From Candidatus Lokiarchaeum ossiferum (GTDB taxonomy: Archaea; Asgardarchaeota; Lokiarchaeia; Sigyniarchaeales; Promethearchaeaceae), in NCBI GenBank assembly GCA_025839675.1, contig CP104013.1, forward strand, positions 240,001-272,000: DNA of 32,000 bases, in the 5' to 3' direction. Shown piece after piece: positions 5,317 through 24,383 of the stretch. Position 1 is the first letter of the stretch, and every line of letters starts with the position of its first letter. A program made the position numbers and the translations under genes. The notes below the pieces were generated by a model, which saw only the letters and a list, made by a program, of their open reading frames with translations, ran no database searches and was not told where the DNA came from.

Positions 5317-6231
5317 TTAGAATGCATAATAGCAATCCTTGCACAGAGGTTTACTATCCGTTATGCCACTTTGTTTAGTACCACAAATATGACATTGTTT
5401 CCCAAAAATACTACCGCGATATTTTTTATTTTTGAAGTAACATGGTTTGCACATTGGATGGGTAGGATCTAGTTCGATTTCCTCCCCACAAATGATACAA
5501 TTGCCTTGAATTTTCCGAATGTTTTTAATTTGGGTGTATTCAACATCCAAACCGTATTTCGTACGATTCCAATTCTTTATAACTTCAGCTTCATACCAGC
5601 TCCCATCTTTTAAACCCGGTGCATTAGCAATCAAGATTTTATTTTCATAACCCTCATCTGTTTCAACTTTAATCCATTTATTCCCTTTAGAGAGAACCAT
5701 GAATTTCTGTATTGAAAATTGTTCCTTGGAATTTTTCGCTAAAGTTGTTTCCTCTAGATTTTTCTTCTTTTCACTAACAGTTTTCTGTCCAGCACTCATT
5801 AAATATTTAATATGTTCCCGAACATCCAAAACTTTATCACGTTCTTCAAATAAAACTCCAATTTCATGGTTTTTTTCTGCAGAATGTTGATACATATTCA
5901 TGGACGTGACAAGTGCTGTCGTTTCGTTATAATAAACTTTAGAATGAAGATCATCAACCACATATACCCTGCATCTGTCAAGATATGGCGATAATTCATC
6001 GAGTGATTTGTTATTGCCATTTGGTTGGTTTCGAGTAATAATTGTAATTTCAATTTCATTTTTCTCATTATCATTCAAAACGTATTTCAAAGCATCGTTC
6101 AAGCGAGGCCATCCATCTAATTGAATATATGGGCTTACAATCATCAATTCTTTTCTTGCCCGTTTGATTATACTCAGAATTTCTGCTGTAACACCATCTG
6201 TTTCAGTAATTACTTTAACCATTTTTATCAA
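5317..6231 (-). CDS. phospholipase-D-family (single HKD, Nuc-like) nuclease fused to two C-terminal CxxC...CxxC zinc ribbons
   Basis: LHSKVYYNETTALVTSMNM is an H-x-K ... (T/G)S-x-N HKD-type motif, with the H codon at 5944-5946. The C-terminus carries CIICGEE...CKPC and CHICGTK...CKDC. Confidence 0.75.
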   Translation of the reverse strand: MIKMVKVITETDGVTAEILSIIKRARKELMIVSPYIQLDGWPRLNDALKYVLNDNEKNEIEITIITRNQPNGNNKSLDELSPYLDRCRVYVVDDLHSKVYYNETTALVTSMNMYQHSAEKNHEIGVLFEERDKVLDVREHIKYLMSAGQKTVSEKKKNLEETTLAKNSKEQFSIQKFMVLSKGNKWIKVETDEGYENKILIANAPGLKDGSWYEAEVIKNWNRTKYGLDVEYTQIKNIRKIQGNCIICGEEIELDPTHPMCKPCYFKNKKYRGSIFGKQCHICGTKQSGITDSKPLCKDCYYAF

Positions 6232-6466
6232 CTTTTTAGACTTAGTTCTAAATAGTAATTTATGGAAAATCTTTAAAAATTTATGCAGAATTGTTGATTA
6301 CAGAAAAGATATATAGATTTCACAAATGAAATCTATTTTCATTAAGTACAAAAAAACTTCTAACTTATTAACTACATATATACAACGTAGAGTACTTCAT
6401 TAGTAAAGCATTGGAAATACGCGGAATCATCTCAAACACAATATTTGAGTACTCAATCCGCAAGGT

Positions 6467-7381
6467 TTACGTTCTTTTCCAAAAATTATTAAAATATTGT
6501 TCTTGACAAAATTGTTCAAGCTTGTTTCCATTTACATAAATTCTTTCAACAGATTGCATTAATAGTAATTCAACAGGTAAAAATGTCAGCTCATTGCAAG
6601 ATAACGTTAATAATTTGAGCTTTTTCAAACTTAACAATTGTTCAGGGAGACTTTTAAGTTGATTCATTCCTAAATTCAGTTCTTCCAATTTTTTAAGATT
6701 ATTAATATCTTTAGAAAGTTCAGAAATCTGATTATCTAAAAGGTAAAGTATTCTAAGAGAAGAGATTGAAAATAAGATGTCGGGAATTTTGGTAATTTTA
6801 TTTGTTCTTAGATATAAACTCCGAAGTTTGGTTAAATTTCTGATACTTGAAGGGATTTCCTCTAATCCACATCGATATAGGCTTAAATGAAGAATGTATC
6901 CATTAGAAGATTTAAAACCAATGCTATTGTATCGAAGAACAGTTTTTTTAGGAATTGGGAATCCAAGTATTGATTCAATCTTATCTAAGAATTCTATTTG
7001 ACTTGCATACAAGGGTTCTCCATAATAATTATGGATAGGTTCATTATTCGAGTTTTTAATTTTTGCTTTCCGCTTCGCAAAAGTCTTCTCCTTTTCTTTT
7101 GCTAGATCTATTATTATTTTTTTTCTGTTTTGCTTGATCTGATATATTTCTGATGGATTTAACAAATTATCAGCGTTTTGATATTCTTCAAATAATATCC
7201 ACTTATTATTCTTGGAGATTAATAAGTATTCAACGCCAATCATTTCATGAAAGATAGAAAAACGATTCCATTTAAGTGAAACTGTCCTACATTTACACTT
7301 TTTCGACTTTTTATGAAAAATTTCCCCACATAATAGACATTGATAGGTATATTTTTTTAGATTTTGTGAATATTGTTCCAT
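6467..7381 (-). CDS. zinc-ribbon + leucine-rich-repeat (LRR) protein
   Basis: N-terminal CLLCGEIF...KCKC. The C-terminus holds about six LRR units of 22-23 aa (LTKLRSLYLRTNKITKIP, LSSLRILYLLDNQISEL, LKKLEELNLGMNQLKSLP, LKKLKLLTLSCNELTFLP). Confidence 0.8.
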   Translation of the reverse strand: MEQYSQNLKKYTYQCLLCGEIFHKKSKKCKCRTVSLKWNRFSIFHEMIGVEYLLISKNNKWILFEEYQNADNLLNPSEIYQIKQNRKKIIIDLAKEKEKTFAKRKAKIKNSNNEPIHNYYGEPLYASQIEFLDKIESILGFPIPKKTVLRYNSIGFKSSNGYILHLSLYRCGLEEIPSSIRNLTKLRSLYLRTNKITKIPDILFSISSLRILYLLDNQISELSKDINNLKKLEELNLGMNQLKSLPEQLLSLKKLKLLTLSCNELTFLPVELLLMQSVERIYVNGNKLEQFCQEQYFNNFWKRT

Positions 7382-7454
7382 CTCAAATCCTTTTTTCTTA
7401 TCTTTAGTAAAATTAGGTTGGAATAATGATAATAAAAACTTTTACTCGAATGTA

Positions 7455-7511
7455 TGAGTAATACTACTCATCAACAGAACAATAATTGGATTTATTAAGT
7501 AATATTACTTA
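7455..7511. promoter_or_regulatory. two related palindromes (TGAGTAatacTACTCA 7455-7470; perfect 16-bp TAAGTAATATTACTTA 7496-7511) upstream of the HTH gene; candidate operators
   Basis: Read directly. The centres are 41 bp apart and the second ends 21 bp upstream of ATG 7532. Confidence 0.4.
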
Positions 7512-7531
7512 TTATTAATTAGTGAAATAAT

Positions 7532-7849
7532 ATGGTTAAAATGACACAACAACAGAAAGATGATCGTGATACCAAGATCAAAGAGTTGATTAAAGATGGA
7601 CTAACAGTAGCACAAATTGTTAAGGAAGTCGGGTGTTCTAATTCCACTGTTTTAGATTTTACTCAACCCAAACATAATATTGGTTCAAGTAATATTACTC
7701 ATAACGAATTAACACCTGAGATTAAAAGTTCTATCGGTGTTATGATTGAGCTATTTAAAAACTCATTAGATATTCCAGAGTTCGTTGATTCAATTGATTT
7801 GAACATTAGAAAGGCAATTTCATCATTGGAGGCAATTATTGATGAGTGA
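7532..7849 (+). CDS. small helix-turn-helix DNA-binding protein
   Basis: GLTVAQIVKEVGCSNSTVLDF is a typical HTH segment near the N-terminus. Palindromes lie immediately upstream. Confidence 0.6.
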   Translation: MVKMTQQQKDDRDTKIKELIKDGLTVAQIVKEVGCSNSTVLDFTQPKHNIGSSNITHNELTPEIKSSIGVMIELFKNSLDIPEFVDSIDLNIRKAISSLEAIIDE

Positions 7850-17500: not shown

Positions 17501-20115
17501 TTCAGTATGGAGATATAATTGGGTATTTTCTCCAGCATATTGAAGAGGATAAGAAGGGGAATCATTCCTTATTATGGATAAAAGGGACATCGGGCAATAT
17601 TGGAAGAATAAGTGAAACATATTTGGAATTAGTCGGATTGTATTTACTTGAATCAGAAATATTTGAAATGGTCGATTCTCCTGCCCAAGGAAGGCTATTA
17701 AGGACCTTTACCGCCGAATCTCGAAGTTATGAACCCTTTTTTACCTTAGCTGGAAAAAAACTGGAAGAACCATTAACTAAAATTCCTTTTGTATATAACA
17801 ATAAGAAATCGCATAATAAACCTGAAATGTTGTATTTAGATTATCTCATTCCAACACAATTAATTCAGTTTTGTAATCCGGAACAAGGAAGTATTTTAGC
17901 AGATAGAAGAGGAAGAGTAAAAAGGAAGATATTACAAGAATGGCATATTTTAGATGAGAATAGTCAGATCACGCTTATTACCAAAGTGCTTATCAATGCC
18001 TTACGCTCATTTTTCTTTGTCCAGCTAGGAAAATCCAATCCAGACCTAATTTCTGAGTTTGAAGTCCGTTTTTCAATATCGGAAATGATTTATTTATCTC
18101 AGCATCACAAGAAAAATTATTCTAATATTCCGGTGCTGTCTAAAATTCTTACGAGTCCTAAACAATTAGCTTTTCTAATAAGGAAATTTGCAAAAAAAAC
18201 GAAAGAAGGGAATATGGTTATCGTGGAGGACTCGGGGTTATCAGAAATTGCAGATAAAGTTGAAATTTGGCAGTATGCAAATCCCGGAATTATTGATTAC
18301 TCTGATAATTTACCAAAATGTAAATTTGAAACAATTATTAAAGAGATCTATCACCCTCTCCAACATCCATTTACTTTGATAGATGGTGAGATTGGATGTG
18401 GAAAAAGTGTTTTACTCGCTCAAATCGCAATAAACCAGTTAGAGCAAAATAAAACAATTTACATATTGCAACCCTTTGTCGAATTGTCCCGAGTTCCCGA
18501 CATTAAACCAAATTCTTTAATCATCATTGATAATATCGACGCTTTATCAGATCATCAATTACAGATAATTAATTTATGGTATAATATCAAGGAGATACAA
18601 GTTATTGCGACTATTAGATCAGAAAAGATGAAAGCCTTTCGTAATCGATTTAATATCTTAAATCCATTACCAAATTCACTTAGTAGATGGCATTCTGTCA
18701 AATTCTCCAATTGGACGATTAAAGAATTAATTGAACTAATTGAACATGAAAAAAATTACTGGGGAATTGCATCGGGAATTGAAAATTATAGGGAAGAAAT
18801 ATTGGAGATTTCAAATGGAAATTGCACATTTTCAACCGGAATATTGAAAAACCTCCGATTTAAAGGAAAAAAAGTGCTGTTACGAAGCGATCTTTTTGAA
18901 CCTGTTGAGGCAATGGGTTCAAAAATTTTGCGATTATTAGCCGAACTTTACCTCGATGAAAATAGTCAAATAATCTCCGAAAATGCTACCAATGAATTAA
19001 AATTGATATGGATAATTCTTATGGCATATCGAAAAATTCCAATTGAACAAATAGAACCAAAAATAAATTATTATCGAGGTTTACCAGATATATTATTTAA
19101 AAGTCTTTTAGATAATTTGCACGTAGACTTGCAAAGTGATGATTCTTACTTATCGAGTATTTTTCCCGCAATTTTGAGAGGGAATTCCATAAAAATTCCC
19201 CCAAATATTGCTTGGAAGCAATATATTTTAGATATCAAAAACGGTGGATTAATTTTATTTATGAGGAATAAACAAGGGAATTCTTCTTTTTTTGAATTGG
19301 AAAGATGGGCTCAAATTCTAAAGATCTTTCAGAATATTCAAGAAGAACAAGGAGAAAGTATTTTTCAACTCTTTAAGAATATTATTCAAGAAATTGTGAA
19401 TTCAAATGATTTCGATTTTCATGAATTGATTCATATTATCTGTTTTACAATTGGATTTTATTACGATAGAGGGTTTTATGAATATTTTCCTTCAGAATTT
19501 TGGGAAAGCAAGAATTATCAAGAGATGTTCAAAAGTTTCAACAATGGAGAAATGATTGAATTTATTCAAATCATCCTTTCTACTATTTTGTATTCTTATA
19601 TGCCAATTTCTTTAGAAATTCCACAGGAAGTTATATTTAAACCGCTAAAAATTGTTGAAAGCATAATTAGTTATGCAGAAACAGATTTGAAAATTCTTGT
19701 TCCTAATTTAATTAAAACACAACTATATGGCTTTCAAGGAAAATTCCATTTCTATTTTCAAAATATAGAAGAAAGCCTAACTTCTTTCTTAAAGGTGGAA
19801 TCCCTCCCACAATTTTCAGAGATGGATTTAGAGATTCAAATGGAAATCTTAGAAGAAATTATATCGATTTATCTTATTCAGAAGAAACCTGAAATAATGG
19901 AAGCTTGGTTGACTAAAATAAAAGATGTTGATCAGAAAATGTGTAACAACCTTAATCGCTTTCCAAAAATACTTCAACCACATGTACATGAATTACATGC
20001 ATCCTATCTATTCATTTTATCACGATATTATGAAATAAGAGGTGATACTGAGAAGAAAGATGAACTCTTCATGGAAGCAAATATATATAAAAAGGAATGG
20101 AATATTGGAAAATAA
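14560..20115 (+). CDS. giant TPR-repeat / unknown middle region / P-loop STAND-like NTPase / helical C-terminal protein (1851 aa; ATG 14569 may be the true start)
   Basis: Many canonical 34-aa TPR units occur in the first ~800 aa (e.g. AEYNTLGLIYLYARKFENAIQSFKTSIEYNP, KFQLGNAYESRRDYQRAIKIYTEILQIDP). Walker A GEIGCGKS is encoded at 18385-18408 and Walker B LIIIDNID at 18517-18540. Confidence 0.85.
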   Translation: MKIMSHKTYTKLEAMLKELVQLITSENFTYETNYYAQILFIHEISVSLKNQSSLGKSIEGKIKSILDYLLQNKIEEIPQDLLDEEKIQILKLGINKFLNINNFNAADKGLQLLGNIKSENKFAIIYQTRLLCNQNKFKDARVKLNQIQIPNKKTEKYLFFSTKFNILVQKSNIEEWKNFEKQIKEYIPDDVSLARMTSIQIYKLEGEFEKAISLQQEVINELKAHEDTHSFVYSAEYNTLGLIYLYARKFENAIQSFKTSIEYNPTSLNLKFQLGNAYESRRDYQRAIKIYTEILQIDPSNPKVVTTLANMISRDGNPDNAIKMYRKLMDNKSYVEQNGYFFKNLALAYFRKGDFKNAEINHNIAIEKDPNNHQFYYHRGTFYLHSMKYNKSKHDLLKAIELFPSHPDYWNQIGNVYLNQNLVEDATTAFQECVKLDPIHFSALFNLGLVHYFQKKPSIALKFLQKAEKSCPSQFLVYFYQGVIHLKNIQYKKASKCFLIALKLEKPTKLMQERFEKFELDILCGLYHCHFELQQNEEALTIGQTLMKKTEKNIESNEIFVSNIESVQDPTSFLLIIKRNYAVLLERIGKYEEAIEILSDHRPSNSFLFDENHKERCFQLTSIMYLHKKEYINARNAIWHALSNRESSLSYFICGFIEFKLKTQDSQKNFKVSVQILYESQVNLFLYFENLKILFEFCEKFHFTSSFKKISAFQPSFAQLTQKTSSIEQFNIIPYQLWYKIIMFSICIDSTQEFMIEKLEELNERSQSKFSEWLDYWEMLLHLGIKYKKTQKIKRVLKKMFALNPNYKIRSKLWNNEIIGKQEVLKLKLSEKIKQQKQVDLTEERYVFKFRDRGFWHKGDYYIILDTGETGSEFREGPNNYYIKDQVDLGLSSKRMGLNTNDNINEEEKQKFQELMENLHTQVFLTDKTETNFQSNLTELFGMNNSGTMNYFLSKDDIQAIKEYNEIIKKSPEYLKQYGIIQYGDIIGYFLQHIEEDKKGNHSLLWIKGTSGNIGRISETYLELVGLYLLESEIFEMVDSPAQGRLLRTFTAESRSYEPFFTLAGKKLEEPLTKIPFVYNNKKSHNKPEMLYLDYLIPTQLIQFCNPEQGSILADRRGRVKRKILQEWHILDENSQITLITKVLINALRSFFFVQLGKSNPDLISEFEVRFSISEMIYLSQHHKKNYSNIPVLSKILTSPKQLAFLIRKFAKKTKEGNMVIVEDSGLSEIADKVEIWQYANPGIIDYSDNLPKCKFETIIKEIYHPLQHPFTLIDGEIGCGKSVLLAQIAINQLEQNKTIYILQPFVELSRVPDIKPNSLIIIDNIDALSDHQLQIINLWYNIKEIQVIATIRSEKMKAFRNRFNILNPLPNSLSRWHSVKFSNWTIKELIELIEHEKNYWGIASGIENYREEILEISNGNCTFSTGILKNLRFKGKKVLLRSDLFEPVEAMGSKILRLLAELYLDENSQIISENATNELKLIWIILMAYRKIPIEQIEPKINYYRGLPDILFKSLLDNLHVDLQSDDSYLSSIFPAILRGNSIKIPPNIAWKQYILDIKNGGLILFMRNKQGNSSFFELERWAQILKIFQNIQEEQGESIFQLFKNIIQEIVNSNDFDFHELIHIICFTIGFYYDRGFYEYFPSEFWESKNYQEMFKSFNNGEMIEFIQIILSTILYSYMPISLEIPQEVIFKPLKIVESIISYAETDLKILVPNLIKTQLYGFQGKFHFYFQNIEESLTSFLKVESLPQFSEMDLEIQMEILEEIISIYLIQKKPEIMEAWLTKIKDVDQKMCNNLNRFPKILQPHVHELHASYLFILSRYYEIRGDTEKKDELFMEANIYKKEWNIGK

Positions 20116-20130
20116 AAAAATAAGAAAATA

Positions 20131-20174
20131 GAGATATTTGGTGAACTCTAAAGAGATATTTGGCGAACTCTAAA
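20131..20174 (+). repeat. exact tandem 22-bp direct repeat x2 (GAGATATTTGG[T/C]GAACTCTAAA)
   Basis: Read directly. One mismatch between units. Located 16 bp after the stop of the giant gene. Confidence 0.9.
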
Positions 20175-20239
20175 CAATTATTTCACTTCTTTGGAGAGGA
20201 AAATATAAGAATTAGATGGTCACCAACAAAAGGTGTAGA

Positions 20240-20264
20240 CATCACAGTAACATCACAGTAACAT
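20240..20264 (+). repeat. tandem 11-bp repeat CATCACAGTAA x2 plus a partial third unit
   Basis: Read directly. About 100 bp upstream of ATG 20366. Confidence 0.85.
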
Positions 20265-20365
20265 TTTAAAATTTGAAATTATTACAAGATAGCTAAATTT
20301 AATAAGATATTTTTTCTTAAAAACATACAATCTGATAGTAATTAAATTGAGAAAGGCAAAAGAAA

Positions 20366-22408
20366 ATGTCAATTGCAAAAGGATTTTTTGATAATGAAGT
20401 TATTCAGCAAATAAAGTCAGGTAATTTAGATATTTTTAATCAATTAACAAAAGATATGGAGAAAATTGTAAATACTCAAATTAAGTTTAATAATTATAAA
20501 ATAAAAAAAATTTTTACATCTCCAAATTTGTCAGCAGGTAATCCACCTAGGATAATTAATCCTGATTGTGAATCTACAATTATTGTGGGACCAAGTGGAG
20601 CTGGAAAGACAACCTTTTTTGATAAAGTAATTCACCCAATAATTAGTTCAAATACAATTAAATCACCTATCAGAGAATACGTTAATGGTTTAAAAATAAC
20701 GTATTCAGTATCCGATAAAAAACCTCAGAAAGACAAAACTAGAGATGATTTAACATTTCAATTCACAACAACACTACCTAACGAGGTTTCTTTGATAGTT
20801 AATAATAAAAAATCAATTGAAAATAAAAAAATCTTGAAATCTCTGGGTTTGTATGACAATTATTTGAGTGCTTTTTTTTTTGTTAGTGGTCAAAACGATC
20901 ATTTACAGCTTTTCTCAAATTTTCAAGGAAATATCGCTCAATATAAGAGATTTTTTTATCACCCTACTGATTTAGAAGTTGTTAAATTATATGAAAGTAC
21001 GATAAATGAAATGTCTGAGATTTTGCAAGATAATAATTCTCGAATAAATCATATTGAAACTAGAAAAAGAAGAATTGAAGATTATATTACCAAATTGCAG
21101 AAAGAAATTATAGAATACCAGATGTTATTAGACAATAGCACAGATATAAAAATTTTAATTGATAAATTGCGAGCCAATTCAAAATTTAATGCATTGCGGG
21201 AAGAGTTAAAAGAAAATAGGAAGAAAATTGATAATATTGATGATAAAATATTGATTGAAAATCAGATTATAAAAGACAAGCAAAATAAAAAGATTTCAAG
21301 AAAATTTTCAGATGAATACCACCGATTTATTCGTGAGCAATACAATTCTTCCTTCAAGAGGTGCTTAATATGCTATGAGGAAATCAATTTCAATAAATAT
21401 CACAAAGCTTTTGAATCAGGAAGTTGCTATTTATGTAATTCAAAGTATCATGGATATGAAAAATATAATGGTACCATGTTTATTAAGGAAGAAAACAAAA
21501 CAAAAAAAATCCAAAAAGGTTTACTGCATTTTATTACTGATAAATCGAATTTACTCAAAGAAAAGGAAGAAATAATTAAAAGAATCAAAGAAAAGGAAAA
21601 ACTTACATTTTCCGATGAAGAAATACGTTTAAAAAAGATAATATCGCCATTTTACATGGAAATCACTAGGACGCATCGAAATTTTGAAGATCTTCTTAAT
21701 AATTTCGCAGATATTAAAAGTTCTAAAGAAGAAATGATTACAGGATATAAAGAAAATGTTTTTGATTATAATAAAGAAATAATCAAACTCAAAAAAATAC
21801 AAAATATTCTAAAAAAAAAATTTGAAATTATAAATGTAATATATAAAAATTTTATAGAAAAGTTAGAATTAGATATTAAAGATGTATATGAAGTATTTTG
21901 TGATAAAATATCTCAATTTTGGTCTCAGTTATCCCAGATTTCTGACAAAAAAATTCAAGAAAAAAATGGAAGACTTTATGTTGTTACAGTCTCAAAAGGG
22001 AGTCTTCTCCCCATTACAACTAAAATTACAGGTTTAGATCCAAAACAAAAAAGACTTTCTACAAACATGGTAGAAATATTAAGATATTCTATTCAATTAG
22101 CTTTTATTTATTGTTTATCTACCAAATTTCAAAAAACACCCTTTAAAGTAATATTTTTTGATGATCCAAATCAGAAATATCTCAGATCCCTTATAAATTT
22201 GTTAAACTCAACATTTGTTAATGACCTAAATTTTCAAATAATAATTTTAACACATATGGAAGAGGTCGAAACTTCATGGAAAAAAGAGGAATTCGATTTC
22301 TATGATGGAAATATGCCTATGTCAAATGATGCATGCTCATTAATAGTTAAAAATTGGAGATCTGGTGAATCAAATGATGTTAATTCTGAGGAGAATAATA
22401 AAAATTAG
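20366..22408 (+). CDS. Rad50/SMC-like ABC ATPase with a coiled-coil insertion carrying a CxxC...CxxC zinc ribbon
   Basis: Walker A GPSGAGKTT (20588-20614). Long K/E/I-rich coiled-coil-like middle. CLICYEE...CYLCNSKYH (21362-21435). Signature-like LSTNM..., Walker B VIFFDD (22148-22165) and H-loop-like IILTH near the C-terminus. Confidence 0.85.
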   Translation: MSIAKGFFDNEVIQQIKSGNLDIFNQLTKDMEKIVNTQIKFNNYKIKKIFTSPNLSAGNPPRIINPDCESTIIVGPSGAGKTTFFDKVIHPIISSNTIKSPIREYVNGLKITYSVSDKKPQKDKTRDDLTFQFTTTLPNEVSLIVNNKKSIENKKILKSLGLYDNYLSAFFFVSGQNDHLQLFSNFQGNIAQYKRFFYHPTDLEVVKLYESTINEMSEILQDNNSRINHIETRKRRIEDYITKLQKEIIEYQMLLDNSTDIKILIDKLRANSKFNALREELKENRKKIDNIDDKILIENQIIKDKQNKKISRKFSDEYHRFIREQYNSSFKRCLICYEEINFNKYHKAFESGSCYLCNSKYHGYEKYNGTMFIKEENKTKKIQKGLLHFITDKSNLLKEKEEIIKRIKEKEKLTFSDEEIRLKKIISPFYMEITRTHRNFEDLLNNFADIKSSKEEMITGYKENVFDYNKEIIKLKKIQNILKKKFEIINVIYKNFIEKLELDIKDVYEVFCDKISQFWSQLSQISDKKIQEKNGRLYVVTVSKGSLLPITTKITGLDPKQKRLSTNMVEILRYSIQLAFIYCLSTKFQKTPFKVIFFDDPNQKYLRSLINLLNSTFVNDLNFQIIILTHMEEVETSWKKEEFDFYDGNMPMSNDACSLIVKNWRSGESNDVNSEENNKN

Positions 22409-22422
22409 GAGTACTATGGAAA

Positions 22423-23001
22423 TTGAGTAAAAAAACCAGATCAATTATCAATTTAGTGTTAGATAAGTTCATTTTGAATAAATATAAGCAAAAAATAGAT
22501 GAAAAGTATTTAAAAAGTTTGTTTGTTGTATGTAAAAAACTAGAAAAGGAATTTTCAATATTCAATTTAGAAAAATTTATTTTGGGAATAAAATTTGAAG
22601 AAAAATTATATAATGAATCCATATTTAAAACTGCAAAAAAAACAATTCCAAAAAAAATTCTTACTGAAGATGCAGCTGTTGGATTGGCTTTCTGTTTTTT
22701 ATTCAAAATTTGTCCAGATATAACTGAAATAGAATGTTATCAGGCAGAAGGAGAAGGATATGATTACAGGTATCGAATCGGAGATCATTTTTACAAAATT
22801 GAAATGAGTGGGACAGATACAGAGATTTCTAAATATTTTACTGATCGAATTTATGCAAAAAGACAAAAATTTAAAGATGGTACATATTGGGAAGATAACT
22901 TCGAAAAAGAAGAAATTTTTATCGTTGATTTTCATTTCGACAGATATACTTATTGGGATTCAAAAGTACATGATAATATAAAGCAAGGTAGATTAAATTG
23001 A
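22423..23001 (+). CDS. hypothetical protein, second gene of the ATPase operon; weak PD-(D/E)xK-like pattern
   Basis: TTG start 11 nt after AGGAG (22407-22411), with no in-frame ATG nearby. EDAAVGL...GEGYDYRY...YKIEMSG could be an E...D...E-x-(S) degenerate nuclease core (speculative). Confidence 0.55.
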   Translation: MSKKTRSIINLVLDKFILNKYKQKIDEKYLKSLFVVCKKLEKEFSIFNLEKFILGIKFEEKLYNESIFKTAKKTIPKKILTEDAAVGLAFCFLFKICPDITEIECYQAEGEGYDYRYRIGDHFYKIEMSGTDTEISKYFTDRIYAKRQKFKDGTYWEDNFEKEEIFIVDFHFDRYTYWDSKVHDNIKQGRLN

Positions 23002-23813
23002 TTGGATTATATTCTGAAGATGTTGAAAAACATATCAATATTATTAAAAAAGAAAAAACTAGTCTCATCATCAATCTTAGGAACAATAGTGATGAAGAAA
23101 AAGATGATAATTATAGAAGAATAATTAGATTAGAACTTGAAATTGCAGATATGGAGATAATACGTGGATTTTATAATAAAGCGATAAGCAATATAAAAAA
23201 TGGCTTGATATTTTTAGACAAACTTCAAAACTCACATCATTTTATTGAAAAAATTTGTTTAAGAGGTCTAATTGAAGAAAAATTTTCATCAGAAAATAGA
23301 GAATTGTTTTTTAAATTTTTAATTAAAGATAAGGATCCTATTGACGAGGATTTAGAACAAATTTCTGATTCATTAAGAAATACTTTTGCTTATATCATTG
23401 ATGAATTTGTTGAAAATAAATTTAAAGCGAATCTCCAGAACCTAAATAAATCTCATTTCTATTTATATCAAAACACTCCTTTTAGGTACTTAGATTTGAT
23501 TCCAAAACCAATTATTAAAATTGGCTCATATCCGCTCTATTCGGAGCATTTTAATACATTTTTCTCGGTTTATTCTGAGAATTGGGATTTCTTCTCAATA
23601 AAAGATAATCTTGTACATCCAAGCCTTGAATACAATAGACTTCTTATATTCGCGAATTCATTTAAACGTCGAATTGCTGAGCAAAATGTTAAAATTTTGA
23701 CATTTTATGAAAACCTTCTTAAAAGTTTTTCAAATTGGAAAACTGATGAAATTAAAGAATGGGAAAAAAAGACACAAATACTAAATCATTTTGGTAGAGA
23801 TGCAAAGATCTAA
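22998..23813 (+). CDS. hypothetical alpha-helical protein, third gene of the ATPase operon
   Basis: TTG 22998 overlaps the upstream TGA (TTGA), suggesting translational coupling. No family recognised. Confidence 0.6.
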   Translation: MIGLYSEDVEKHINIIKKEKTSLIINLRNNSDEEKDDNYRRIIRLELEIADMEIIRGFYNKAISNIKNGLIFLDKLQNSHHFIEKICLRGLIEEKFSSENRELFFKFLIKDKDPIDEDLEQISDSLRNTFAYIIDEFVENKFKANLQNLNKSHFYLYQNTPFRYLDLIPKPIIKIGSYPLYSEHFNTFFSVYSENWDFFSIKDNLVHPSLEYNRLLIFANSFKRRIAEQNVKILTFYENLLKSFSNWKTDEIKEWEKKTQILNHFGRDAKI

Positions 23814-24270
23814 TGAGGATAATTATTATATTAAAAGAAAGGTCCGATTCATAATTGAATAAAGCAGAACCTGAGTCAATAAAATGAGATTTTTGATTTT
23901 CTTGGAAATAACTCAGTTTTTTGCGAATATTTATTAAAAATTTTCAAAATTTCCAATATTTCGAATATTTATCCATTTGGGTATATCTCCATTGAAAAAT
24001 GGAATCAATTTTTGCTCGTAAATCCTTTGAAGAAGGACATTTCTTCTCAGAGAGAGAAGCGAAGGCACGGTAAACATACAGCCATCCAAAAAGACAATAT
24101 ATGACTTTGCTCAAGTATCAATTGAAGTAATTTTGAGTGATAATTCAATTCAAAGAAACTAACAACGATTAAATTTATGAATAGAAAGTAAAAGAAAAAT
24201 TAACAAAAAAGCAATTCTAATAGATAAAACCAGTCAATTTCTCAAGAAAGTCCAAATTTTCTACATTATT

Positions 24271-24294
24271 ATGTAGGGATGTAGGGATGTAGAA
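24271..24294 (+). repeat. tandem octamer ATGTAGGG x2 plus a degenerate third unit ATGTAGAA, preceded by the inverted CTACAT (24261-24266)
   Basis: Read directly. About 90 bp upstream of ATG 24384. Confidence 0.7.
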
Positions 24295-24383
24295 GATGAT
24301 GGCTTAAGATAGGGAGTTGAATTATATAACTTGGCATACTTTTCTAGGTCTTTTTAAAATATTGTAACTAAAATATTCCTAAT

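Follow-up and report, generated by a model that had tools for sequence, protein, structure and literature searches.

Three adjacent genes in the Asgard archaeon Candidatus Lokiarchaeum ossiferum encode a Rad50/SMC-like ATPase of the LmuB type and two small proteins of 192 and 271 aa. Together they probably constitute a self-contained immune module of Lamassu type that moves horizontally. They lie in a stretch of 32,000 nt (contig CP104013.1, positions 240,001-272,000, forward strand), referred to here as the window, in which all coordinates of the Lokiarchaeum genes are counted. Lamassu is among the commonest SMC-based immune systems and the range of its architectures is still being mapped, while Lokiarchaeum represents the lineage closest to eukaryotes in which experiments are becoming possible.

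The original prediction, made from the sequence alone, was of a novel or highly divergent Lamassu-like system. It is supported in part, by the family of the ATPase and by the recurrence of the three genes as a unit. No recognisable LmuA was found and the gene order is not that of Lamassu, and for these two reasons we do not file the trio as a plain Lamassu member. The effector and adaptor roles appear to fall to two small proteins of undescribed families, not to LmuA with its fused C-terminal domain (CTD) and LmuC.

The three-gene operon

The genes of the trio, each an open reading frame (ORF), and the motif between the first two are as follows.

20366..22408, + strand: SMC/Rad50-like ABC ATPase of LmuB type, 680 aa, NEF87_000224 (ATG start; PADLOC LmuB match)
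22407..22411, + strand: Shine-Dalgarno-like AGGAG, 11 nt 5' of the TTG of the second gene (read from the sequence)
22423..23001, + strand: 192-aa partner, NEF87_000225, orphan family, candidate PD-(D/E)xK-like nuclease effector (TTG start)
22998..23813, + strand: 271-aa partner, NEF87_000226, orphan protein predicted to be all-helical, candidate adaptor (TTG start)

The NCBI annotation contains the identical three genes, each as "hypothetical". The first and third products (680 and 271 aa) match those of NEF87_000224 and NEF87_000226 with 100% identity, and the 192-aa product is that of NEF87_000225. The TAG stop codon of the ATPase gene ends at 22408 and is followed, after a gap of 14 nt, by the TTG of the second gene at 22423. 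At the next junction the TTG of the third gene (22998-23000) overlaps the TGA of the second (22999-23001) in a 4-nt TTGA. The three ORFs with their lengths, their tight coupling, the AGGAG and the TTG/TGA overlap were all found as the original prediction had described them.

An ATPase of the LmuB family

The best match of the ATPase in the PADLOC library, by a wide margin, is the LmuB model PDLC03859 (E 4.8e-19), which aligns with residues 43-664 of the protein over positions 2-608 of its 611. Two further LmuB models match at 2e-7 and 1e-6, and every homologue tested also matches PDLC03859 from end to end (E 1e-9 to 6e-15), as expected of the LmuB-like ATPase that had been proposed. Pfam returned only P-loop matches below threshold (AAA_23, E 0.005, below the cutoff). 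Other defence ATPases were considered and rejected: models of Septu PtuA, PARIS AriA and Gabija GajA were absent from the PADLOC results for the ATPase, while the scores of Wadjet JetC (E 0.32, Walker A region only) and of MADS mad3 and mad8 were insignificant.

Since spurious scores are possible for coiled-coil proteins encoded by AT-rich DNA (the G+C content of the window is about 29%), an independent link to LmuB, free of compositional effects, was sought. A tblastn search of plasmid and phage collections with the ATPases of the family gave one marginal match (E 0.4, with a bacterial-type query), located on the 268-kb haloarchaeal plasmid pMBLA003601 of Haloplanus rallus (NZ_CP034344.1). 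The operon found there, EI982_RS18595-RS00730 (151362-155749), carries a 707-aa "AAA family ATPase", which hhalign aligns with the profile of the ATPase family at a probability of 96.7% (E 4.5e-10, 434 columns). This protein includes the motif CPIC-x17-CPLC, identical in spacing to the cysteine motif of the Lokiarchaeum ATPase described below, and it matches PDLC03859 with an E value of 5e-37 as well as several other LmuB models. In the Haloplanus operon three hypothetical genes (264, 187 and 304 aa) precede the ATPase gene, which is last as in the usual Lamassu layout. The three partners matched nothing in PADLOC or Pfam, and hhalign comparisons of the 192-aa and 271-aa profiles with these partners and with each other revealed no similarity. 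This four-gene operon may be another unrecognised Lamassu-type system.

Conservation and distribution of the trio

Word-indexed searches returned very few relatives, but all three genes, in unchanged order, are found on the contigs of these relatives. At one locus (L001) the proteins have 681, 191 and 276 aa; another (L002) belongs to a second Lokiarchaeum genome (CP163304), in which the trio has different neighbours. Pattern scans of genome and metagenome collections yielded L005, L007 and L009, with ATPase identities of 25-28%, where an ATPase of 624-678 aa is followed by ORFs of 167-182 and 273-284 aa; L005, labelled as an Ignavibacteria metagenome-assembled genome (MAG), is identical to L008. 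An exhaustive HMMER search with the 192-aa family gave 12 representative clusters among 1.84 billion, all of them standalone proteins of 111-202 aa, and the contigs of these clusters (L012-L018) include an ATPase gene, a gene of about 190 codons and one of about 275.

The order of ATPase, 192-aa and 271-aa type genes is identical in at least nine distinct loci (the window, L001, L002, L005/L008, L007, L009, L012, L013 and L015, in addition to short fragments). The ATPase gene is first in all of them and the 271-aa gene always directly follows the 192-aa gene, so that the co-occurrence elsewhere that the original prediction had proposed to survey is now established. Within the trio, the spacing of adjacent genes varies from -23 to +56 nt. 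The three proteins diverge in step with one another, at pairwise identities of 48-63% inside the Loki clade and 23-37% from clade to clade, and this, together with the constant order and the tight junctions, shows that the three genes are co-inherited. There is no fourth gene conserved on either side of the trio. The movement of the trio as a unit between archaea and contigs labelled as bacterial suggests that it is probably a rare, rearranged form of a known antiviral system and not a housekeeping repair system.

In a Promethearchaeota/Lokiarchaeota MAG (WJKO01) the ATPase is split. Its N-terminus ends one contig (L006, 2082-2417) and its C-terminal half starts another (L012, 1-983), where the reading frame runs off the contig start. 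There is a long ORF beside the first fragment and a weak DDE transposase match near the second, and the split reflects either an assembly break or interruption by an insertion sequence.

Architecture of the ATPase

The ATPase is composed of a split ABC head, two coiled-coil arms and an apical CxxC-x17-CxxC, at the following positions.

20588..20614, + strand: Walker A GPSGAGKTT, residues 75-83 (G-x4-GKT[TS] invariant across all homologues)
20966..21361, + strand: ascending coiled-coil arm, residues about 201-332 (no Pro or Gly in 201-351; heptad windows)
21362..21436, + strand: apex with putative Zn-binding motif CLIC-x17-CYLC, residues 333-357 (conservation of Cys and spacer)
21437..21925, + strand: descending coiled-coil arm, residues about 358-520 (heptad windows)
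22055..22069, + strand: ABC signature-like LSTNM, residues 564-568 (Ser invariant)
22148..22165, + strand: Walker B VIFFDD, residues 595-600, without the catalytic Glu (motif alignment)
22241..22255, + strand: H-loop IILTH, residues 626-630 (motif alignment)

The four head motifs lie towards the two ends of the protein as had been described, and a Q-loop-like SGQ is also present. The heptad-like region between the heads is nearer to 320 aa (about 201-520) than to the 400 aa first estimated. Hydrophobicity at heptad positions a and d exceeds the 95th percentile of shuffled sequences in 47% of the 28-residue windows of the ascending arm and in 43% of those of the descending arm, and the same test gives 0% and 11% for the heads. 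Across the loci the ATPase has 624-683 aa, with arms of roughly 130-160 residues.

Head motifs, the four Cys and their spacing are kept in all homologues, with some variation in detail. The signature is FSQGQ, LSNSQ or FSHSQ on contigs labelled as bacterial, and the His of the H-loop is found only in the close Lokiarchaeum-type relatives (the window, L001 and L002). At the second position of the Walker B pair the Lokiarchaeum-type copies carry D, as do L007, L012 and L013. Other residues occupy this position in L005 (E), L009 (A), L015 (T) and the Haloplanus ATPase (S); the catalytic Glu is missing in most members of the family.

The architecture resembles that of Rad50 and raises the question of whether the trio could be a divergent housekeeping repair complex of the Rad50-Mre11/SbcCD type, with the ATPase as sensor of DNA ends, the 192-aa protein as nuclease and the 271-aa protein as accessory factor in chromosome repair. 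An origin of Lamassu itself from SbcCD has been proposed (Haudiquet et al. 2025, PMC12663957), and at one locus, L007, the trio adjoins genes for DnaK, DnaJ and OsmC. We nevertheless consider a repair complex very unlikely. The NCBIfam scan of the ATPase gave no match to a Rad50 or SbcC model, which excludes a housekeeping Rad50/SbcC/RecN orthologue at the level these libraries allow, and no Mre11/SbcD-type phosphoesterase was detected in the partner proteins or in the scanned neighbouring genes of any locus. Such an orthologue with such neighbours, which would have spoken against the original prediction, was therefore not found in the libraries or in the scanned neighbourhoods. The loss of the Walker B Glu in most members, the extreme rarity of the 192-aa partner and neighbours that differ at every locus, even between the two Lokiarchaeum genomes, also argue against a role in housekeeping.

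The cysteine apex

At the midpoint of the coiled coil, C333-L-I-C336 is followed by 17 residues and by C354-Y-L-C357. Both CxxC had been recognised in the original prediction, with a spacer of 20 residues that proved to be 17. No full-length homologue departs from the four Cys or from the spacer length, nor does the ATPase of the Haloplanus plasmid, and the first CxxC of the bacterial-type copies is CPIC, as in classical hooks.

The apex had been interpreted as a complete intramolecular zinc ribbon and not a hook. Two CxxC per chain are indeed present, and the length of the spacer and its alternating hydrophobic pattern would be compatible with a ribbon hairpin. The ribbon was overstated, since the sequence fits both an intrachain Zn(Cys)4 site and two interchain sites of the hook type and does not separate them. 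Zero, one or two copies of CxxC have been described in short LmuBs and always one in long LmuBs (Haudiquet et al. 2025, PMC12663957), so that a double CxxC was already known among LmuBs. The new element here, judging from the alignments, is a 17-residue spacer that is invariant from Lokiarchaeum to a haloarchaeal plasmid. It provides a handle on how LmuBs with two CxxC dimerise, a question which has been left open in the literature.

The two partner proteins

Neither partner carries a recognisable effector domain, as had been noted originally, or matches a described family. With every alignment member as query and E values up to 10, neither the 192-aa nor the 271-aa family gave a family match in Pfam, NCBIfam, PADLOC or PHROGs, and profile comparison with the PDB matched no natural protein. 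Matches to well-annotated non-defence families, which would have counted against the prediction, are likewise missing from these libraries for both proteins. The lack of LmuA and ABC-3C CTD matches has to be seen against the great diversity of LmuA CTDs.

The regions that can be delimited in the two proteins are:

22660..22935, + strand: conserved core of the 192-aa protein, residues 80-171, with E82, G112-x-D114, E127-x-S129-G130, R142, K146 and D169 (family alignment)
23013..23165, + strand: helical hairpin at the N-terminus of the 271-aa protein, residues 6-56, its sole confidently modelled part (predicted local distance difference test, pLDDT, about 77-87 over residues 11-50)

In an alignment of 17 sequences of the 192-aa family, D114 is invariant, G112, E127, G130, F139, R142 and K146 are nearly invariant and E82 is present in most members. 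The AlphaFold2 (AF2) model, built from a shallow alignment (pLDDT 52, predicted template modelling score 0.57), places a helix at 80-96, strands at 102-107, 113-119 and 122-131, a helix at 136-151 and a strand at 164-171. This corresponds to the order alpha-beta-beta-beta-alpha-beta that we take to characterise the PD-(D/E)xK core, with E82, D114 and E127 presumably at the expected places. The PADLOC model REase_II matches residues 104-162 weakly (E 0.02), and the profile of the family matched no PDB chain and no nuclease. A PD-(D/E)xK-type nuclease is the assignment to which we give a slight preference. The weak E...D...ExS pattern noticed at the outset has thus proved to be conserved, although its reading as a nuclease has no profile or fold match and is drawn from this pattern and from the order of elements in a low-confidence model (pLDDT 52).

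The roles of the two partners might also be exchanged, the 192-aa protein being a non-enzymatic middle component similar to LmuC and the 271-aa protein an analogue of LmuA with a novel effector or none. The 192-aa gene is in the middle position and encodes a protein of a size that we take to be typical of LmuC; its family lacks the catalytic Lys and has no nuclease family or fold match. LmuC is moreover untraceable by sequence methods, and one clade of short Lamassu has no effector domain (PMC12663957). An exchange of roles seems improbable to us given the conservation of E82, D114, E127, R142 and K146 on a predicted restriction-endonuclease-like core (pLDDT 52), which would be hard to explain for a purely structural subunit. 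Furthermore, a cyclic permutation of the canonical order from A-C-B to B-A-C would put the effector second.

The 271-aa protein is predicted to be all-helical, and its AF2 model, again from a shallow alignment, has a pLDDT of 43. The positions that are invariant in the family lie in the N-terminal hairpin, which contains the conserved K20, L27, E46 and I49, and in a C-terminal W-E-K...L motif. Residues 95-187 or so of its profile (window positions 23280-23558) match PDB 4loa_A, an engineered "de novo design amidase", with an E value of 4.6e-5. We discarded this as homology because no natural PDB protein was matched and a second aligned piece was out of order; the match is probably driven by composition.

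Genomic neighbourhoods

The trio has different neighbours at every locus, and these are frequently defence genes. Those of the window, and the intergenic region 5' of the trio, are:

8482-9441, - strand: SLFN_AlbA_2 (Schlafen/AlbA_2) protein, further 5' of the trio (domain scan)
13079-13969 and 13970-14449, - strand: 296-aa radical-SAM viperin homologue and adjoining NYN/Zc3h12a-type RNase gene (domain scan, phmmer)
14560-20115, + strand: 1851-aa protein with TPR repeats at its N-terminus and an nSTAND NTPase5 P-loop domain in its central part (residues about 1267-1358), directly 5' of the trio (Pfam)
20116..20365, + strand: upstream intergenic region of 250 nt, where the promoter is presumed to lie (sequence; two tandem repeats inside)

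The 296-aa protein matches viperin over its full length in phmmer comparisons with the PDB (6b4c, E 2e-35; mouse RSAD2, 3e-31); it may be the Asgard form of viperin, paired with the adjoining RNase. The 1851-aa protein is not a conserved neighbour of the trio elsewhere and may be a STAND sensor similar to Avs. SLFN_AlbA_2 proteins also flank the trio in L008, next to a type IIG restriction-modification enzyme, and in L002, where a 1525-aa protein of this type is accompanied by an integrase fragment and an HD-HATPase protein. AbiTii, HNH and PDC-S50 proteins are neighbours in L009. On L013, a JGI metagenome contig, TIR-domain and pEK499_p136-family proteins are encoded about 3.5 kb from the trio (5782-7808, - strand). 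A rare and patchy distribution with changing, often immune neighbours is the pattern of a mobile defence module.

Mobility could also be explained by a module with an SMC-like ATPase that serves a mobile element without any immune role, in maintenance or partition, in addiction of a toxin-antitoxin-like kind or in competition between elements. The patchy distribution resembles cross-domain transfer, the nearest relative in the plasmid collection is carried by the Haloplanus plasmid, and there are an integrase fragment beside L002 and the weak DDE transposase match near L012. A module of this sort is nonetheless unlikely. The viral contigs scanned with the ATPase and 271-aa alignments contained no relatives, no close copy of the trio ATPases was found in the plasmid and phage collections, and the trio loci on long contigs (6.0 and 6.3 Mb, 174 kb) are chromosomal. 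The best family match of the ATPase is to a validated defence ATPase family, and the neighbours are defence genes and not genes for replication or partition.

The intergenic sequences around the trio contain several short repeats. A 22-nt tandem repeat in two copies, AGAGATATTTGG[T/C]GAACTCTAA, is found 5' of the ATPase gene at 20130-20173, as is an 11-nt tandem repeat in two copies, CATCACAGTAA, at 20240-20261; both could be regulator-binding sites. Downstream of the trio, 570 nt without an ORF (23814-24383) include two copies of ATGTAGGG at about 24271-24292, and this region has no Rfam match. A repeat search around the trio revealed no flanking direct or inverted repeats of the insertion type, and scans for tRNA and Rfam families found none in the window. 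Because the host is an archaeon, scanning for sigma-70 promoters and terminators has no meaning here.

A candidate immune module

Several observations weigh against an immune module of the Lamassu kind. The defence function is one that we infer from homology and neighbourhood only. Neither partner matches LmuA, LmuC, an ABC-3C middle-component or CTD model, or any nuclease family. The lysine of the canonical (D/E)xK motif is Ser or Thr in the 192-aa family, so that K146 or R142 on the next helix would have to substitute for it. Foldseek comparisons with the PDB gave nothing significant for the AF2 model of the 192-aa protein (pLDDT 52) and only generic helical-repeat matches, none significant, for that of the 271-aa protein (pLDDT 43). 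Profile searches of PDB chains with the ATPase and enlarged alignments reached neither LmuB nor Rad50, and the failure to reach any solved LmuB chain by sequence puts this ATPase clade at a great distance from LmuBs of known structure. For the second clade, the bacterial label derives from MAG binning and a single NCBI "[bacterium]" tag, and the neighbours of L007 are an exception in not being defence genes. Finally, the trio starts with the ATPase gene, as the original prediction had pointed out for the window copy and as holds for each of the nine loci, whereas in the canonical order lmuA-lmuC-lmuB this gene is last (PMC12663957).

The solved Lamassu complexes nevertheless provide an analogy for how a Lamassu-type trio might act. 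A pair of ATPase chains would be joined by the Zn-binding apex and the coiled coils, and the helical 271-aa protein would dock on the coiled coil or on the heads and keep the 192-aa protein inactive. The complex would then be remodelled on binding ATP and either foreign DNA ends or replication intermediates. Since Walker A is intact and the catalytic Glu of Walker B is replaced, ATP hydrolysis is probably slow. The 192-aa protein, most likely a PD-(D/E)xK-type nuclease, would be released or activated and would degrade the DNA of both host and invader, and the infection would be aborted.

A further-reaching proposal, which we regard as doubtful, is that the trio represents a distinct SMC-like immune system. 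In such a system an intrachain Cys4 zinc ribbon would close the coiled coil of the LmuB-type sensor, which would dimerise in some other way, a free-standing mini-nuclease would be controlled by a dedicated helical adaptor, and both partner families would have originated independently of LmuA and LmuC, with exchange of the module between Asgard archaea and bacteria.

As a Lamassu-type module, the trio suggests that a sensor of LmuB type can operate when the gene order is reversed and when its two partners are not seen by PADLOC or by the Pfam ABC-3C models; automated defence finders would probably miss it. It adds a module of this type to the Asgard archaea, near a viperin homologue in a cultured Lokiarchaeum. 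The finding extends a known theme and is not a new principle, the function of the trio being a putative one.

Comparison with known systems

Wadjet JetABCD, and SMC-kleisin-KITE complexes in general, combine an SMC-superfamily ATPase with two small partners, as does the trio, and act in defence, a role which for the trio is a presumed one. Unlike Wadjet, the trio ATPase has a Cys motif and no hinge domain and its coiled coil is far shorter; JetC scores insignificantly and there are no JetA, JetB or JetD matches in the trio.

With Rad50-Mre11/SbcCD, the presumed source of LmuB, the trio shares a split ABC head, an antiparallel coiled coil and a Cys-based Zn apex. It differs by the lack of a Rad50/SbcC model match and of an Mre11/SbcD phosphoesterase partner. 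It also has two CxxC in place of one, a much shorter coiled coil and a degenerate Walker B, and it is rare and mobile.

The Haloplanus operon is closer. Its ATPase is homologous, has the identical CxxC spacing and matches the same PADLOC model, and its partners are also unannotated. The two operons differ in that the Haloplanus ATPase gene comes last, after three genes whose products have no similarity to the 192-aa and 271-aa families.

Lamassu, with the related ABC-3C and DdmABC systems, remains the closest known group, above all the short Lamassu with two CxxC (Millman 2022; Haudiquet et al. 2025). In contrast to LmuA, in which the effector is N-terminal and fused to a CTD, the candidate effector of the trio is a separate protein of some 190 aa whose conserved core is C-terminal, and up to an E value of 10 neither partner has a PADLOC LmuA or LmuC or a Pfam ABC-3C CTD or middle-component match. 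The hosts of Lamassu in the published census include only seven archaeal genomes, all Euryarchaeota or Thaumarchaeota (PMC12663957), whereas the host of the trio is an Asgard archaeon. Short LmuBs have about 600 aa on average and long ones about 800, with Walker B motifs of hhhhD[Q/S/T/E] and hhhhDD, respectively (PMC12663957). The ATPases of the window, L001 and L002 therefore mix the length and the two CxxC of the short type with the hhhhDD of the long type. In other respects the trio resembles Lamassu: the ATPase matches an LmuB profile from end to end, its 624-683 aa and two apical CxxC are those of some short LmuBs, and an intact Walker A with invariant GKT[TS] is combined with a degenerate catalytic base in Walker B, in agreement with the reported LmuB patterns. 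Like Lamassu, the trio consists of three genes with defence-gene neighbours and a patchy distribution.

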